A stretch of DNA of 47,694 nt, taken from positions 1 through 47,694 of IMG/VR virus record IMGVR_UViG_3300027804_000088; one strand, written 5' to 3'. The notes under the pieces were generated by a model, which was not told the DNA's origin, did no database searches, and saw only the letters and a program-made list of their open reading frames with translations. This document shows, one piece after another, positions 23,400 through 47,694 of this stretch. The translations under genes and the position numbers were made by a program. This stretch comes from a virus (lineage: Duplodnaviria > Caudoviricetes). The first letter of the stretch is position 1, and each line of letters starts with the position of its first letter.

Positions 23400-23428
23400 A
23401 TTATACCATCCTTTTTAAATATTGACAA
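23400..23428 (-). promoter_or_regulatory. Sigma70-type promoter TTGTCA-17-TATAAT with extended -10
   Basis: The minus strand reads ttgtca-atatttaaaaaggatgg-tataat, 6 nt before the ATG at 23393. Confidence 0.6.
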
Positions 23429-24161
23429 GCTTTTGTGAGCCTTTTGGCTTAAGATTTGTACCATCTCTGAACCAATTACCACAAGTTCTACATTGGTATC
23501 TTTGGTATTTGCTTGTAGTTGTTATGTTAAATCCACGTTTTTGTATGTTTTTAGATTGGCATGTAGGACATGCATCCATAGTACCATTAATCACATTGTT
23601 ATTAAGGTGATTTTTAATCCAAGGTTTAAAACGTTCATAAACTTTTTCTAGAAGAATAACATCGTTCTTGTTATACTCTTCCATAGTTTTCCATGCTTTA
23701 GGGATACCTGCCATACACTGTACCCATAACTCATGACCACTATGTTCAGTCTTTTTACCTAAACCTAAAGACTGTGCTACATAGTCTAGTTTGTTAGATA
23801 CAAATCTAAACCTACCTTTAGCTACTGTAAGTAGATCAATTTCTTTAAATGGTGCAGGAGGAAACATGCCATGTAATAAAAACTCTTTATTAAGGCTAGG
23901 TATATCAAACCGTTTACCATTGTAATGGATAACAGCATCAGCTTCGTCAAGAAGCTTATGAATACCTTCTAACATTTTCTTGTCACCTGATTTTTTAACA
24001 GAATCAAACATCATCTTTTTATCACCCAACCATTTTGCTGCATAGCACATAACGTAAGATGACTCTTGTAATTGATTAATACCAATGTTTTGGTCCCATA
24101 TACCCCAGACGTGAGCTACGTTGGGAGCCATCTCAATGTCAAGCAATAAAATTTTACTCAT
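23415..24161 (-). CDS. DEDD/RNase H-like 3'-5' exonuclease with C-terminal Zn ribbon
   Basis: LLDIE, HYNGKRFDIP, YNKNDV and CPTC...CRTC motifs. Confidence 0.8.
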   Translation of the reverse strand: MSKILLLDIEMAPNVAHVWGIWDQNIGINQLQESSYVMCYAAKWLGDKKMMFDSVKKSGDKKMLEGIHKLLDEADAVIHYNGKRFDIPSLNKEFLLHGMFPPAPFKEIDLLTVAKGRFRFVSNKLDYVAQSLGLGKKTEHSGHELWVQCMAGIPKAWKTMEEYNKNDVILLEKVYERFKPWIKNHLNNNVINGTMDACPTCQSKNIQKRGFNITTTSKYQRYQCRTCGNWFRDGTNLKPKGSQKLVNI

Positions 24162-25619: not shown

Positions 25620-26134
25620 TATACGGGAATGTCATCCTCTAAGTCATCAAAGTTAACTTCTTTAGTAGGGTTAGCTTCTGAACCAAAGACATAAGCTTCA
25701 AACTGTTTAGCTGTTGCAATAACATCTGCTACAGATTTACCAGTACCTAGTAGTTCTACTGCACTAGATAAAGAAGATTGACGAACAATAAGAATTTGTC
25801 TTGCTGCACGTTCTTCTTTAGTTTCATAATTACTACCTGTTACTCGACCACCTGTTGCTGGTTTAGATTCTGGTGTAGCCACTGATCCATCTCCTCCAAT
25901 ACCTGTCCATTGCCAATAACCATTAGCATCTTTAGTTGTTGTTACATTTACTTGTGTACCTTTTGTTAACTCTTTAATATAATTAAAGACAGAAGGATTA
26001 CTAAAAGACATTAGCTTTTTATTAGCTACTTGTCCTTGTTCATTTTTGTATGTAACTTCAATAGATTGATATGATCTACCATTCTTTGCTGCATGTGTAT
26101 TTGGTGCACCTACGTCTACAATATTAATTAACAT
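25619..26134 (-). CDS. Putative single-stranded DNA-binding protein
   Basis: OB-fold-like N-terminus, acidic tail DDLEDDIPV, next to the polymerase. Confidence 0.6.
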   Translation of the reverse strand: MLINIVDVGAPNTHAAKNGRSYQSIEVTYKNEQGQVANKKLMSFSNPSVFNYIKELTKGTQVNVTTTKDANGYWQWTGIGGDGSVATPESKPATGGRVTGSNYETKEERAARQILIVRQSSLSSAVELLGTGKSVADVIATAKQFEAYVFGSEANPTKEVNFDDLEDDIPV

Positions 26135-26846
26135 TTACTATCTCCATGTTACCCCATGTTGGCCCTACTTGACACTCGACCCGCATAGGAAGGTTAAATT
26201 CTACTCCAAACAATTTCTTAAAGTTTGCTGGAATATCCGTAAAACATTGATCAACAATCTTTACTATACTAATATTATCGCATACTTTAGAATCAAAGTC
26301 AATAATAATAGAATCATGTACAGTGTTGATTAACTTTACATTTTTCATATCCTTAAGTCTATTACTTAAAGATACTCTTGCTATAGCCATCAGGTCTGCA
26401 CCTAGTCCTTGAACTGGGTAGTTAAGGATTTTGGTGCGAGGCCATTTGACTTTGCCATACTTTACTTCTGGCTCATAGTTATAAACTCTACCTGTCGGCA
26501 TCGTTATCTTTCTGTCTTTCATGGCTGTTGCCACAATCTTTTTATGCCATTCACCAAGTCCCGTATACTTGCTATAAAACTCATCAATAACATTTTGCCA
26601 GAATGATTCCGAATTAGATACATCAGTAAAGTTAGTATCGTTAGCGTAACTATAGGCGGAACCTCCATAAATAAGCCGAAACACAAAAGTTTTAGCGATA
26701 AGACGAGAAGGTAAACCAAAACGATTCTGATTGTCAGTGTGTTGATCGACATTGTTCCATATCTCGTCATACGCTACTTTATCTTGACTTAAATAAGAAG
26801 CACATACCCACTCAAGAGCTTTGGCATCTGCCTGTAATAGCATCAC
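26124..26846 (-). CDS. polA: Family A DNA polymerase, C-terminal part (motifs A, B, C)
   Basis: ADAKALE, AKTFVFRLIYGG, NYPVQG and VHDS. Confidence 0.9.
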   Translation of the reverse strand: MMLLQADAKALEWVCASYLSQDKVAYDEIWNNVDQHTDNQNRFGLPSRLIAKTFVFRLIYGGSAYSYANDTNFTDVSNSESFWQNVIDEFYSKYTGLGEWHKKIVATAMKDRKITMPTGRVYNYEPEVKYGKVKWPRTKILNYPVQGLGADLMAIARVSLSNRLKDMKNVKLINTVHDSIIIDFDSKVCDNISIVKIVDQCFTDIPANFKKLFGVEFNLPMRVECQVGPTWGNMEIVNVN

Positions 26847-26934
26847 ATTCCTTTTGTTTTTCTGCTACTTTGATTTGTTCAAATGCTTGTTCAGCACCTT
26901 GTTCGTTAAACTCTTGTACATAATCTTTACTCAT
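26812..26934 (-). CDS. Putative 40-aa ORF bridging the two polymerase halves (MSKDYVQEF...)
   Basis: ATG preceded by GGGAG, overlaps both polymerase ORFs in the third frame. Confidence 0.4.
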   Translation of the reverse strand: MSKDYVQEFNEQGAEQAFEQIKVAEKQKECDAITGRCQSS

Positions 26935-28087
26935 ATCTACTCCCGAATAATGTTTTAATTTCGCCATCAAAGTTTTGTAGGTTTGGTTTACTTGAACTAA
27001 GTCTACCTGTTCTAGCCACACATTGATTAAGCTGTCCGTGTAATCTTCCTTCATGCCAGTTCATCTCCTTTCTTAAATCTACCAGTCCTTTGTAGTAAGC
27101 TGTTAAACGTTTCTCTAGTGTAGCACGTTTTAATAATACTTCAACTAGATCTTTAGCATACTTACTTCTAGTCTTTAAAGACTTTAAGGTCTGATCATCT
27201 GTTGAGAAGAAACCTTCTTTAGTTAACTCCGATCCTTTAATCGGGTTAATAAGTCTAGGGAATGTTATTTCATGTTCGACCCACCTTTCTTTTGTTTGTC
27301 CTTTTCTTTCTCCCGTTTTAAACACACCAATAGCTTCTCTCCTCCTGACTTTAATAATGCCGCCATAGAGAAGACTAGATACATGCTCCGTGCTATTAGG
27401 ATTAAACTCCACAAGGTCATGATATTCCATAAGGATTTTATCAATGACTGCAATTTGATCTTCAAGTTCTGTAGCCAAAATAGTACTGCTATTCTCATCA
27501 AATAAAAGTCCATTAAATTCCATCTCCTGTAATATAACTAAGTCTTGGTTATGCAAACTAATAAGTCTTTGCATGTTCTTTGCGGATGACGCAAATTCTT
27601 CCATCTGTTTCTCATATACTTTTTGCGTTAAAAGCAAATCTTGTTTAAGATAATCTTCAAGTAAGTCTCTTGGTATCTTGTCAGTATCTACCCCATTCTT
27701 CCAATACTCAGTAGCAATAACGTCAAGTTTACTACCCAGATCATAATAAGCAGCGACACTATTGAGACTTGGATAGGGATGTTGTTGGCCCGTAAGTATA
27801 AAATGTACCAGCTGACAATCCCAAACACGTTTACCCATAAAATTAATTCCATACTTCCGTATCCAATGCAAATCAAATTTGATATTAAAGCCAACCAATA
27901 CATCTGCCCCATTAACTTTGGCTTGTACTTCTTCCAAACGAGTTCGATAAGGTTGATCATCATACTCGATGCTATATACACTAGCATCAGTATTAAGCAA
28001 ACCAATATAACAAAGCTTATTAGTTTCGTCAAAAGGATTCCCTTTGTTACTAATAGTTGTCTCAACATCTAGTATTAAGCTGCGCAA
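26927..28087 (-). CDS. polA: Family A DNA polymerase, N-terminal part (3'-5' exonuclease and thumb)
   Basis: LDVET, GFNIKFDL, YLKQD, FNPNS and TGRLSSSKPNLQN. Confidence 0.9.
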   Translation of the reverse strand: MRSLILDVETTISNKGNPFDETNKLCYIGLLNTDASVYSIEYDDQPYRTRLEEVQAKVNGADVLVGFNIKFDLHWIRKYGINFMGKRVWDCQLVHFILTGQQHPYPSLNSVAAYYDLGSKLDVIATEYWKNGVDTDKIPRDLLEDYLKQDLLLTQKVYEKQMEEFASSAKNMQRLISLHNQDLVILQEMEFNGLLFDENSSTILATELEDQIAVIDKILMEYHDLVEFNPNSTEHVSSLLYGGIIKVRRREAIGVFKTGERKGQTKERWVEHEITFPRLINPIKGSELTKEGFFSTDDQTLKSLKTRSKYAKDLVEVLLKRATLEKRLTAYYKGLVDLRKEMNWHEGRLHGQLNQCVARTGRLSSSKPNLQNFDGEIKTLFGSRYE

Positions 28088-35395: not shown

Positions 35396-35572
35396 TTATT
35401 CACCATTTGATGCAGCCTTGTATTGTAACACTTTGATCTTATTAATCAATAGGTTACGCTTAAGATTGCGTTCATGTTTGGGGAAGGTTTTGTATATCTT
35501 CCAGAATGCATGAGCATAGATTTCTTGCAATGCATCAGTGTTATACTTTTCAAGTTTAATTTCTGTAGTCAT
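35396..35572 (-). CDS. Small early protein (58 aa, MTTEIKLEKY...)
   Basis: AAGGA RBS, not in the ORF track. Confidence 0.6.
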   Translation of the reverse strand: MTTEIKLEKYNTDALQEIYAHAFWKIYKTFPKHERNLKRNLLINKIKVLQYKAASNGE

Positions 35573-35678
35573 GATGATTTCCTTTAGGATCTAATTGTTC
35601 AAGACGAACGCACAAGTCATGTGCGAGTAATTCGATTGTTGCTTTACAGATTAAATATGAGTTCATAATCATTTCCTT

Positions 35679-35707
35679 ATTATAAAAGTTTTGCCCCATG
35701 TCTGCAA
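35679..35707 (-). promoter_or_regulatory. Putative early promoter TTGCAG-17-TATAAT
   Basis: Lies just downstream of the terminator at 35734-35762 and upstream of the small early ORFs. Confidence 0.5.
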
Positions 35708-35733
35708 GGGTTGTTGGCTCTTGCGAATGAGAC

Positions 35734-35762
35734 AAAAAAAAAGCCCTGAATTAACAGGGCTT
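35734..35762 (-). terminator. Intrinsic terminator after the 120-aa gene
   Basis: AAGCCCTG-6nt-CAGGGCTT stem followed by a T-run on the minus strand. Confidence 0.9.
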
Positions 35763-35781
35763 AAACTATGGAGAATATATA

Positions 35782-36775
35782 ACTTAGTTGGTGATTGCTA
35801 GTGCAATGTCACCTTCAACATTTGTACGATCAACTTTTACTTTGGGAGTTGATGGATTGTCTGTTGAATCTGTTGTTGCTGATTGATGTTGCATACTTTC
35901 TAAGTTATCGATTGACTCAGTGTTACCTGAGTTTTCTCGTTTAGCGATGATTTGCTGATTGCGTTTTCTTAAATCAGCTAACTCATCAACGAGGTCAACC
36001 AATTCTTTCGCAAGAGGTGAACGGAAGCGACGCATAACTCGCTCAACTTCTTCTAAGTTTTGCAAAGCAAGGAACAAGCGAAGACCTGAGTTAGCAGACT
36101 TCATAAGTTCGTTGTATTTGTTAAAATCAAATTTGGACTGTGCCATAATAATGCTCCTAATTAAGGTTATAAATAATTATCTCTTTCGAGACAATTACTG
36201 TGCAATCACTGATTATTTGAGCATGTTACATAGCAGGCTGCTTGTGATTAGCGCTCCCGCAGGGGCGATAAGCACATTGCAGATGCTTCTGTAATAGGAT
36301 CAAATGATTTGTGATTCACTTTGTAATTGCCGAAAGAGGATTATTTATTAATCCTTAATTCGCTTAGGAGTATTATGGTACAGACAAATGAAACTGATTT
36401 TAATAAATGCAATGACTTAATCGAAGGATGCTGGCTCTGGGATTCACATATTGTTTCGTTTTGCACAAACTCCAAGGTTTGTTGTTGAGCGTGGGCGGAG
36501 ATGACGGACACATCGTAAGCGATGGTATTTGAATTGGTTAAGTTGATGAGTTTATCCTTATGTTGATTAAGAAAACCAGTCTGTAAAGATGAGCTAAAGG
36601 ATAATAATTAAGGTGAGCTAAGTTATTGATAGATTAGAGTGTAGATATACACAATAGAATTACTTGAACTATGGTGATAGATTAGGAATGATTGTTAATA
36701 TATTGTGTGTATATTGATTGATTATATATTACATGTAATAACATTGTGTGTTAATGTTAGGTTACATTGTTGAGT
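35782..36775 (+). repeat. About 1 kb imperfect inverted repeat (fold-back) centred at 36260
   Basis: Colinear paired blocks, e.g. 36181-36188/36331-36338, 36112-36129/36395-36412, 35980-35990/36542-36552 and 35964-35978/36562-36575. The outer limits are approximate. Confidence 0.85.
35784..36146 (-). CDS. Hypothetical helical early protein (120 aa)
   Basis: AGGAG RBS and its own terminator. It forms the left arm of the giant inverted repeat. Confidence 0.75.
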   Translation of the reverse strand: MAQSKFDFNKYNELMKSANSGLRLFLALQNLEEVERVMRRFRSPLAKELVDLVDELADLRKRNQQIIAKRENSGNTESIDNLESMQHQSATTDSTDNPSTPKVKVDRTNVEGDIALAITN

Positions 36776-37001
36776 GTAGGATGATGGGTAATCTAGGTGT
36801 ATACCCAGGGGGGGAAATAAATTAATTATATATTATTTTACTACCCAGTAAACTAGATTTTATAAGAAATTATCAATTAGGTCTAGTACAGGTTTAGAAT
36901 ATGGGCACCACTAACGTGGGCTATTGAACTATGGTCCTCGTCTTAACTAAGTTCGTATTCTTAGACTTCGGACTTACGTCCTCAGTCAACTAGGTACCCT
37001 C

Positions 37002-37103
37002 TATTATATTATTATAATATTATTATATTACTATTATTATATTATATTATAAATATATAAATATAATTATAATATAATTATTATTATATAATTATAATTA
37101 TTA
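37002..37103. other. Almost pure A/T tract (possible origin or unwinding element)
   Basis: 102 bp containing a single C (37031) and no G. Confidence 0.6.
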
Positions 37104-37104
37104 G

Positions 37105-37133
37105 ATTTTAACAGAACTTTAATCACTTGTCAA
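37105..37133 (-). promoter_or_regulatory. Leftward sigma70 promoter TTGACA-17-TAAAAT with extended -10
   Basis: TGTCAA at 37128-37133 and ATTTTA at 37105-37110 on the + strand. Confidence 0.7.
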
Positions 37134-37170
37134 GAAAAATATAAAATATTACGGACAAGGGCTTAATAGC

Positions 37171-37201
37171 TATTGACAAACGTTAAAAGTTATGGTATAC
37201 T
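37171..37201 (+). promoter_or_regulatory. Rightward sigma70 promoter TTGACA-17-TATACT with extended -10
   Basis: TTGACA at 37173-37178 and TATACT at 37196-37201, upstream of the packaging genes. Confidence 0.8.
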
Positions 37202-46624: not shown

Positions 46625-46691
46625 TTTATTGTTCTCTGATGACGCTTAGAGATAAGCGTTGTTATAACATACAACGTCAAAGGAGATTTAT

Positions 46692-47399
46692 ATGTCAAAT
46701 CCAACAAGATTTTCAAATGGTGTATCTACAAATGATGCACAGTATTTAATGGGTGATTATCCATTACCAAGTCCATTTACTTCAAGTGGCTCACGTTTAA
46801 CAGGTGTTGCTCAGTATGCAAATGATTTTACAGAATCAGTTGCAGAATATACTGTAACAGGTACTAGCTCAGCTATTGCTCTTGCAGATGGTAATGGTGG
46901 TATTGCAGTTTTAACACCAGGTGGTACAACTACAGCTACAGCTGCTTATAAAACAGCATCTAATTTAGCTTTTGTAGCTGGTAATGCTGTATGGTTCTCA
47001 ACAAGAATTAAAGCTTCAGCAGTATCAGGTACTAAAGCTTTTTATGTAGGTTTAAGAAATGGTTCAGCAACAACTAATGGTTTATGGTTTGCTAAAGCAG
47101 CATCTTCAACTTCAGTTAACTTAGTTTCTACAGTAGGCTCAACAGCAACTACATTAGTAACAGGTGTTGCAACAGCAGCAGCTGATACATACCTTGAACT
47201 AGGTTTTTATTTTAATGGTGTAGATTTATTAGTTTATAATAATAATGTTTTAGTAGCTAGAGTTGATGCTCCAACAATTGGTACTTCAGGTACAACTTTA
47301 ACTAGTGTTGCTTTAGGCCCAGTAATGCAAATTACTCCTACAGCTACAGATACATTAACTGTTGATTACATCCTAGCATCTACTGAAGTTACAAGATAA
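46692..47399 (+). CDS. Variant copy of the 235-aa structural protein
   Basis: Same length as 30..737, with about 14 amino-acid differences. Confidence 0.6.
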   Translation: MSNPTRFSNGVSTNDAQYLMGDYPLPSPFTSSGSRLTGVAQYANDFTESVAEYTVTGTSSAIALADGNGGIAVLTPGGTTTATAAYKTASNLAFVAGNAVWFSTRIKASAVSGTKAFYVGLRNGSATTNGLWFAKAASSTSVNLVSTVGSTATTLVTGVATAAADTYLELGFYFNGVDLLVYNNNVLVARVDAPTIGTSGTTLTSVALGPVMQITPTATDTLTVDYILASTEVTR

Positions 47400-47411
47400 T
47401 AGGAGAATAAC

Positions 47412-47694
47412 ATGGCTAATTCAGTTCAGATTCAAACGTTAGTTGATAGTGAACGTAATTTAGTTGTTAAGTTAGTAGGACTTTTAGATACAAGTAACGT
47501 AAGTTTAGCTACATTAATTGACCCAGCACTTCTTGCTTCAGTTAATTCTACAGGCCTAAACTCACAAAAACCTACTAAAGTAGCAATTAAAAAAGTTACT
47601 TATGACGTAGAAGATGGCTTAGCTGTTAACCTTTATTGGGATGCCACAACAGATGTACCTATCTGGAGATTTGTAGGTAGGGGATTTGTAATGG
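47412..47694 (+). CDS. Partial copy of the 138-aa protein (truncated by the window end)
   Basis: Equivalent of 750 plus offset 46662. Confidence 0.7.
   Translation, partial: MANSVQIQTLVDSERNLVVKLVGLLDTSNVSLATLIDPALLASVNSTGLNSQKPTKVAIKKVTYDVEDGLAVNLYWDATTDVPIWRFVGRGFVM

Follow-up and report, generated by a model that had tools for sequence, protein, structure and literature searches.

Frpo1, Frpo2 and ssi are single-stranded DNA promoters in the leading regions of F and IncI1 plasmids, at which one strand folds to rebuild the -35 and -10 boxes and conversion to duplex switches the promoter off (PMC9849209; PMC12672017). In these two papers, single-strand promoters used by host RNA polymerase are described for conjugative plasmids, whose DNA enters the cell as one strand (PMC9849209; PMC12672017). 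Mini-hairpin sites are found in the promoters of the N4 virion RNA polymerase and in the priming sites of phage G4 and ssiA (PMC13037366). Among phages, podoviruses with two arms and direct terminal repeats are represented by cobaviruses (PMC6775973), LUZ24 and VpV262.

Here we describe a real, selected and strand-specific fold, probably of single-stranded DNA, in which phages of two groups carry a mirror of their first early gene. Other kinds of fold-back have to be considered beside it. In the T4 e, soc and 49 hairpins and in the hok fold-back, the ribosome-binding site (RBS) and start codon pair with upstream sequence in a read-through transcript. Obelisks and hepatitis delta-like agents are circular RNA replicons that form kilobase-scale imperfect rods, with an open reading frame (ORF) on one arm and ribozymes. 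Quasi-palindromes under template-switch correction drift to perfect complementarity without strand asymmetry.

The stretch of DNA analysed, hereafter the window (47,694 nucleotides; IMG/VR record IMGVR_UViG_3300027804_000088), is a phage genome that assembled as a circle of about 46.7 kb and is divided into two arms. The virion arm lies on the + strand and extends from 37192 past the contig end and round to 20501; the replication or early arm lies on the - strand, from 36146 down to 21102. Terminase, portal, capsid and ejection genes are present, and the early arm encodes a split DNA polymerase A (PolA), a primase, a helicase, an exonuclease, a ribonucleotide reductase and a block of amidoligase, amidotransferase and ATP-grasp genes. 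PolA is made of two ORFs at 26124-28087, with a separate exonuclease-like ORF at 23415-24161, and is also split in MW202796 and Alcaligenes phage QDWS535, the annotated records whose large terminases come closest (75% and 43.5%, respectively). No conjugation family was detected among the 57 ORFs scanned in the window, and none of its ORFs, the largest of 1341 and 1286 amino acids (aa), matched an RNA polymerase family. The contig ends overlap (1-1032 and 46663-47694); because the copies are just 94% identical over their first 300 nt, this overlap may join two strains or reflect a duplicated 235-aa gene.

The fold, hereafter the rod, lies where the early arm begins. It is flanked on one side by a terminator-like site (35762-35741) and on the other by a divergent pair of near-consensus sigma-70 promoters at 37105-37201 (- strand, 37133-37105; + strand, 37173-37201), which confirms the placement given in a preliminary description of this DNA, between divergent promoters and the first early genes. 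The intrinsic terminator-like site, on the - strand, closes the first gene. The remaining early genes have a sigma-70-like promoter on the same strand, TTGCAG-17-TATAAT at 35679-35707 (10.9 bits); its position is kept in the window's subclade, where a spacer motif, ATGGGGCA, is conserved as well. Many relatives also carry, at about 37000-37110 in the window, an almost pure A/T self-complementary tract between the conserved module described below and the divergent promoters, a candidate unwinding element of an origin.

The preliminary description reported complementary, colinear blocks on both sides of 36260, in arms of about 500 nt. All six blocks (36181-88/36331-38, 36110-29/36395-414, 36040-47/36484-91, 35997-36005/36531-39, 35980-90/36542-52 and 35963-78/36562-76) lie within helices of one colinear rod, most with a pair probability of 0.9-1.0. 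Folded as RNA, the + strand of 35770-36769 reaches -362 kcal/mol (z -18.2; 0 of 20 shuffles as good) and the - strand -263.6 kcal/mol (z -9.5); folded as DNA, 35880-36660 gives z -12.6 on the + strand and -9.9 on the - strand. With a score of 218 against 91.5 for the runner-up, the rod is the top fold-back of the window. Its arms are shorter than first described, with 364 nt (35894-36257) and 382 nt (36262-36643) supported: each of three inner segments is better than 500 of 500 shuffles, whereas the outer segment (35770-35893 with 36644-36790) is equalled by 85 of 500 and is unsupported. Pairing therefore ends near codon 84, just beyond the conserved helical core of the protein (residues 8-72), and the rod is 750 nt long, with the leader, the RBS and codons 1-84 of the 120-codon gene. 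The proposal that the left arm covers the RBS and coding sequence and fades at the stop codon holds for the RBS and gene start and fails for the stop codon; likewise, pairing of the entire gene, which had been claimed for the window, is absent there and present in one clade of relatives (L016-L026), in which the rod spans a 78-codon gene and a hairpin beyond its stop codon.

The gene-side arm (35894-36257, + strand), delimited by fold and segment tests, is the template strand of leader, RBS and codons 1-84. The mirror arm (36262-36643, + strand) is a non-coding, gapped copy of leader, RBS and gene start with about 67% identity, and would act as a surrogate non-template strand; in the window it retains AGGAG plus an ATG opening a 37-codon frame. 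Between them, sequence inspection and motif scans identify the apex CCC-GCA-GGG (36256-36264, + strand), able to form a C(GCA)G DNA mini-hairpin triloop if one T is bulged; ViennaRNA, which gives no bonus for such triloops, draws a 4-nt loop instead. Apex triloops of relatives include GAA, GCA and GTA, and in L006, L008 and L017 a common GGGTT motif replaces the GNA triloop. An assembly artefact was considered and all but excluded, the arms being 67% identical and the same fold present in independent contigs.

The first early gene (35784-36146, - strand) encodes a 120-aa protein with a three-helix core (residues 8-72) and a disordered tail. Its RBS, AGGAG (36154-36158, - strand), is conserved in relatives. 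Just before it, a small sense-strand hairpin with a GAAA loop (36175-36196, - strand) presumably marks the 5' end of the mRNA; in relatives its stems covary and its loops are GAAA, GTAA, GAGA, TTCG or others. Searches with the protein gave 51 close homologs and, at the 50% level, 105 representatives, none of known function. Pfam gave nothing above cut-off, PHROG and the ESM Atlas gave no match, a fold search of the PDB gave none at E<=0.001, and the best match of a VIA fold search (Z 7.5) was among generic helical hairpins; BFVD matches were uncharacterised phage proteins only. No homolog was present in the annotated phages or GTDB genome contigs searched, and hence no host or cultured carrier was found. 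A single-protein scan of IMG/VR returned nothing, and relatives were recovered by alignment-based searches. Rfam gave 0 matches at gathering score in the whole window and nine weak, sub-threshold matches in 35400-37200, mostly at the terminator. About one third of the sampled words of 35500-37200 are present in two freshwater metatranscriptome runs (X1 and X2), a count that gives neither part nor strand and carries no weight for or against expression.

Alignment of close homologs yielded 46 loci, including the window's own contig (L027) and five that duplicate other loci over the element (L013, L014, L025, L045 and L048). The rod is found at the same place, beside the presumed genome end, in 42 of the 44 close loci with enough upstream DNA, at a gene-versus-upstream complementarity score of at least 70 (null means 32-58). 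The weakest passing loci (L041, L007 and L015) are merely 2.5-3.7 standard deviations over the null, and complementarity in L010 and L039 is at null level. The rod of L016-L026, whose proteins share 42-46% identity, is 79-85% complementary over about 425 columns. Three distant-homolog alignments added 61 loci, which belong to a second group of phages whose early genes include AAA/vWA genes, and in this far clade 18 of 52 distinct loci exceed the rod threshold, the other 34 being weak or negative. The rod thus persists among related phages of two groups, and the gene can exist without a long mirror, as in L010, L039 and the 34 far loci below threshold. In every locus with sufficient flanking sequence, the gene is the first or almost the first of the early arm and lies opposite the terminase block; some loci have extra ORFs upstream of it, and L009 and L012 keep the rod despite such ORFs. 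A very acidic ORF of 100-150 aa, a possible DNA mimic, lies upstream of the gene (about -815 to -360) in L063, L074, L078, L079 and L084 of the far clade. The rod apex of L049-L094 bears a branched template-strand structure, placed roughly between -200 and -45 relative to the ATG. It contains as many as seven GNA mini-hairpins, is closed by a G-rich/C-rich stem, and may be an inserted element of its own.

MW202796 and QDWS535 are without the gene and have no rod at that place. A scan of cultured and annotated phages, covering parts of most genomes, found no rod in the stretches of LUZ24 (1-5 kb), ICBM1 (1-5 kb), phiEco32 (last 5 kb), VpV262, OK172329 and CRP-901 (scores 40-51), and gave 68-81 on gappy 58-65% alignments in HTVC023P, HTVC027P, DSL-LC04 and MW202785. 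Higher scores in RW (164.5) and MW202796 (130.5) fall within coding genes and look repeat-driven. The self-complementary stretch of MW202796 (L001 28587-29547, score 130), inside a structural-region gene, is probably of this kind; its counterpart in the window, near 2750, scores 91.

Mirror and gene have changed together. In L016-L026, 97.5% of cells pair and 49 of 332 pairs changed on both sides, compared with 25.6 +/- 2.8 in shuffles (0 of 500), a result that is not a probability because the sequences are related; slid registers give 2-6 double changes. The changes often fall within coding sequence and are followed by the mirror. With 24 of 87 apical pairs covarying in the window's clade, the covariation that the preliminary description sought in relatives is present in both. 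Certain mismatches and a 6-nt bulge are invariant in all nine L016-L026 sequences. The earlier view that neutral decay of an inverted duplication does not account for the rod is supported. The mirrored start codon has been lost by different routes in eight of these nine sequences, as if the mirror were kept untranslatable. Because gene conversion could also give double changes, the tests of strand weigh more than covariation.

The mismatch spectrum indicates that the selected fold is that of the + strand, antisense to the gene and its template. Isolated mismatches were counted in an alignment scored without preference for transitions. The count covers 35 of 37 loci, the window included and the rod-less L010 and L039 dropped. 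On the template strand, G.T outnumbers A.C by 116 to 8 (composition predicts 58.5%), and by 69 to 4 in 16 clade representatives (p 4e-12). The excess of G.T on the + strand noted earlier is therefore significant against arm composition once relatives are added; in the window itself it is seen over all transition mismatches of a wide alignment (38:9) and falls short for isolated ones (7:1, p 0.11). G.A (127) exceeds C.T (20) and G.G (41) exceeds C.C (4) in the 35 loci, and deamination was ruled out as the cause of the G.T excess since these classes are skewed too. T.T (84) is also more frequent than A.A (30), which DNA energy tables do not predict. In nearest-neighbour tables G.A is favoured over C.T by 1.25 kcal/mol in DNA and 0.01 in RNA; the G.A excess, predicted by DNA energies only, therefore argues for DNA rather than RNA. 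The far clade shows the same bias for G.T (76:4) and G.G (18:2) and a weaker one for G.A over C.T (23:12), and reverses that of T.T over A.A (13:34). Computed from DNA energies, the fold is more stable on the template strand than on the sense strand in 29 of the 29 near-clade loci examined, compared with 7 of 27 control stretches.

Loops provide a further criterion. Of all 64 triloops, GNA alone gives a very stable DNA mini-hairpin, and an equivalent RNA hairpin has a much lower melting point (PMC13037366, section 2.3). Over the 220 nt upstream of the gene, 87 loci contain 138 x-C(GNA)G-x triloops on the template strand and 11 on the sense strand, with a density of 7.2 C(GNA)G triloops per kb versus 0.56 in the flanks. 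At least one GNA triloop, with varying N, occurs in 56 of the 87 loci (15 of 36 near, 41 of 51 far), leaving 21 near-clade loci without any. A conserved promoter for an antisense RNA is absent, 3 of 29 near-clade loci reaching 10 bits. It is thus quite likely that the folding molecule is single-stranded DNA of the template strand. The preliminary description left a choice between antisense-strand RNA and single-stranded DNA; mismatch classes, DNA energies and triloops favour the latter, and the former lacks a conserved promoter. Its suggestions of a dsRNA decoy, an RNase III substrate or the silencing of a toxic gene lose ground accordingly, because each requires an RNA fold.

A tract of seven G residues (36808-36814, + strand) is followed by a conserved module with TTTTATAA, TAGGnCTAG and GTCCTC (36858-36983); the two together form a candidate terminal-repeat or packaging region, separate from the rod. 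A G tract lies upstream in 61 of 80 loci, and the module is also present in the rod-less MW202796 and OK172329. The G tract, TTTTATAA, TAGGnCTAG, GTCCTC and CTCGGAC are common to window 36808-36983, L001 18340-18640 and L002 48050-48330, and the module is shared by MW202796 and QDWS535, both rod-less. In LUZ24 and ICBM1, C-rich repeats stand at the left end, 0.9-1.0 kb before the first gene. By analogy, the genome end would lie close to this G tract, some 170 nt outside the mirror arm. At a terminus, both 5'-to-3' resection and incomplete lagging-strand synthesis expose the strand whose 3' end is there. If the left end is near the G tract, the folding strand therefore has its 3' end there and would be the strand left exposed by resection. 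Cobavirus repeats have G+C-rich 5' ends and are proposed to form concatemers via 3' single strands (PMC6775973). At 300-1300 nt, 17 contig ends lie upstream and 12 downstream, with no clear enrichment; five of the 17 are within about 90 nt beyond a G tract. Matches to the tf/LUZ24 nick motif are at chance level (43 versus 44.7 expected).

From its sequence, the first early gene looks like a transcription unit of its own. A terminator-like T-run follows the stop codon in 20 of 29 loci of the near clade and 40 of 50 of the far clade, and later genes have their own promoter in 11 of 29 near loci. In keeping with a rod that spans a single transcription unit, it ends at +283 to +293, beyond the stop, for 78-codon genes and at +259 to +284 in L051, L091, L093 and L124, which are among the best-scoring far loci; in the window and several close relatives the mirror ends before the stop codon. 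Within 235 nt upstream of the start, none of the 29 near loci has a duplex promoter of at least 10 bits, scored with general sigma-70 weights. Farther out, at about -810 to -1000, most near loci share a promoter. A sense transcript that includes both arms pairs the Shine-Dalgarno sequence (SD) and AUG with a probability of 0.82, versus 0.62-0.63 in a short one, in which the SD stays inside a local hairpin.

Folding of the template strand rebuilds a promoter in 10 of 84 loci (L006, L007, L008, L038, L041, L011, L012, L042, L044 and L046), with 10.1-14.5 bits folded versus 4.3-8.9 unfolded. The -35 box, TTGACA or TTGGCA, comes from the gene side and the -10 box, TATAGT, TACAGT, TACGGT or TTCAAT, from the mirror arm; the boxes are exactly 17 nt apart once a template bulge, mostly of 3-4 nt, is looped out, and always lie at -42 to -50. 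The window has CTCAAA-17-TGTAAT in the same register, with 6.4 bits versus 7.4-8.9 for ordinary readings, the hybrid promoter of L016-L026 reaches 6-7 bits, and the hybrid-promoter scan gave no sigma-70 signal in the far clade, with its branched, mini-hairpin-rich apex. The reverse combination also attains 11 bits in L040 and L098, and the preference of the -10 box for the mirror arm is modest (55 versus 29 non-independent loci). A folded promoter is thus supported in some subclades and, given the low score of the window's register and the silence of the far clade, is extended to the window by inference.

The data establish that there is a mirror, that it has co-evolved with the gene, which strand is selected, and that mismatches and loops are of DNA type; beyond this we infer a mechanism. 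By keeping a non-coding mirror beside its first early gene, the phage would enable the template strand, when probably left single-stranded at the genome end, to fold back into a 360-bp imperfect DNA duplex. The 3' end of this strand would lie near the G tract and be exposed by 5'-to-3' resection or incomplete end replication. The apical stem would then serve as a single-strand promoter, with the -35 box from the gene side and the -10 box from the mirror arm, the rest of the mirror acting as non-template strand and allowing release of the transcript up to the terminator. Frequent mismatches would stop the double-stranded form from extruding or recombining. Exposure of the genome end as a single strand would thus be what turns the gene on. 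We give a probability of about 45% to this main reading, in which a single-stranded tail folds into a self-made duplex that host RNA polymerase transcribes, much as it does at the Frpo promoters of plasmids.

The main rival, the replication or entry signal of the preliminary description, accounts for the same DNA-fold evidence by a priming site, a landing pad free of single-strand-binding protein (SSB) or a nuclease shield on a 3' tail left at the left end by T7-type concatemer formation, the gene being mirrored merely as adjacent sequence. We regard this as possible, if somewhat doubtful. The phage encodes a primase, helicase, PolA and exonuclease; arms measure about 370-420 nt in the best-preserved rods regardless of gene length; and the branched far-clade apices are rich in GNA mini-hairpins and carry no sigma-70 signal. 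Mini-hairpins of this kind are present at the priming sites of phage G4 and ssiA, where they withstand 3' exonuclease and have little affinity for SSB (PMC13037366), and Frpo also makes primers, to judge from the title of Masai and Arai 1997 (cited in PMC9849209). A priming or shielding hairpin, however, need not follow coding changes across a whole gene and the hairpin beyond it, and to mirror coding DNA is costlier than to mirror spacer DNA. In addition, the promoter geometry of ten loci works only when folded, and MW202796 and OK172329, which lack the gene, keep the terminal module with no rod there, so that the rod goes with the gene.

That the fold acts as RNA, either as a + strand antisense rod (a decoy or RNase III substrate) or in a read-through mRNA from 37133 that hides the RBS, appears unlikely, even though both strands fold far better than shuffles as RNA, G.U bias by itself fits RNA, and T.T over A.A is slightly better explained by RNA energies. 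The stronger SD-AUG pairing in the sense transcript with both arms (0.82 versus 0.62) and the upstream promoter conserved in most near loci suit masking, but masking predicts G.U on the sense strand and the bias is on the other one, 116:8. The antisense version lacks a conserved promoter, and no terminator-like site was found on the + strand after the mirror arm; the G.A excess and GNA triloops are DNA signatures, and Rfam gave no match at curated thresholds. It is improbable, too, that an old inverted duplication without function is merely kept alike by template switching or gene conversion, as in quasi-palindrome correction. Conversion alone yields 'compensatory' changes, block-wise mosaic co-changes in both arms of L017, L021 and L022 resemble conversion tracts, and the mirror is decayed or missing in many relatives; yet conversion predicts no strand asymmetry and erases mismatches, whereas four mismatch classes are skewed here, including transversions beyond the reach of deamination, some mismatches and bulges are invariant, and the roughly 13-fold enrichment of triloops on one strand needs selection. 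Conversion may nevertheless be the way in which pairing is restored. Finally, a rod of about 1 kb that bears an ORF on one arm and encodes a small helical protein is similar in outline to Obelisk- or HDV-like replicons, but an integrated DNA form of such an agent is highly improbable, since every phage locus with long enough flanks has the rod in the same place and orientation, no ribozyme was found at curated thresholds and the signatures are those of DNA; the same holds for an assembly chimera, with arms 67% identical and found in independent assemblies.

A conserved, DNA-tuned fold that runs for several hundred base pairs across a gene would imply an unrecognised single-stranded stage at the genome end of tailed dsDNA phages, and a means of coupling gene expression (or priming) to that stage. 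More speculatively, a widespread group of such phages would have a programmed single-stranded stage at the leading end and a complete 'self-duplexing' gene, with promoter, RBS, frame and terminator rebuilt as duplex DNA by the co-evolving mirror, so that the first protein would be made only on resection or delivery, for example as a sensor-triggered counter to host nucleases. Natural contrasts are offered by the near-perfect rod of L022, the strong hybrid promoters of L044 and L046 and the rod-less L010 and L039. Tests of mismatch spectrum and triloops are a general way to separate selected single-stranded DNA folds from RNA folds in genomes.

Compared with known systems, the rod falls outside the Frpo/ssi, N4-promoter, mRNA fold-back and Obelisk families, each of which fails a defining test. 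Like the T4 and hok hairpins, it would pair RBS and start with upstream sequence in a read-through transcript, but those act in mRNA; here the opposite strand is selected, with DNA signatures and on a roughly tenfold larger scale. It shares with Obelisks and hepatitis delta-like agents a kilobase-scale imperfect rod with an ORF on one arm; in contrast to them, it is a fixed part of a DNA genome with no detected ribozyme, and Pfam, PHROG and fold searches with the 120-aa protein gave no match to Oblin or delta antigen, in libraries that may not include Oblin profiles. Quasi-palindromes differ from the phage arms, which are 58-85% identical with skewed and partly invariant mismatches. Two-arm podoviruses have divergent early and late arms, a gene-free stretch of about 0.7-1 kb before the first early gene and a G+C-rich repeat end, as here, but no comparable fold-back in the stretches scanned (best 40-51). 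C(GNA)G triloops on the strand that acts as single-stranded DNA are common to mini-hairpin sites and the rod, and the window's apex has one. The known sites, however, are short and read by a virion polymerase or primase, whereas here they sit at the tip of a 360-bp rod or on a branched apex, in a phage that shows no RNA polymerase gene and has largest ORFs of 1341 and 1286 aa, compared with approximately 3,500 aa for an N4-type virion RNA polymerase.

With Frpo/ssi the rod has in common a long imperfect stem-loop on the strand that is the template of the controlled gene, and -35 and -10 boxes rebuilt by folding (here in 10 of 84 loci); it would likewise drive first genes and be off in duplex DNA. 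Differences are that it belongs to a tailed dsDNA phage with no known single-stranded transfer and no conjugation family among the 57 ORFs scanned, that its stem runs through RBS and coding sequence whereas the Frpo stem stops upstream, and that the promoter geometry is unclear in the window itself and in the far clade. No description of a gene-mirroring fold-back in phages was encountered in the literature searched, as judged by titles and abstract openings and with most subscription journals outside the search. Novelty rests on the architecture. In its manner of working the rod, by analogy, most likely resembles the Frpo/ssi promoters, and confirmation of the promoter reading would also allow it to be classed as a distant variant of Frpo.
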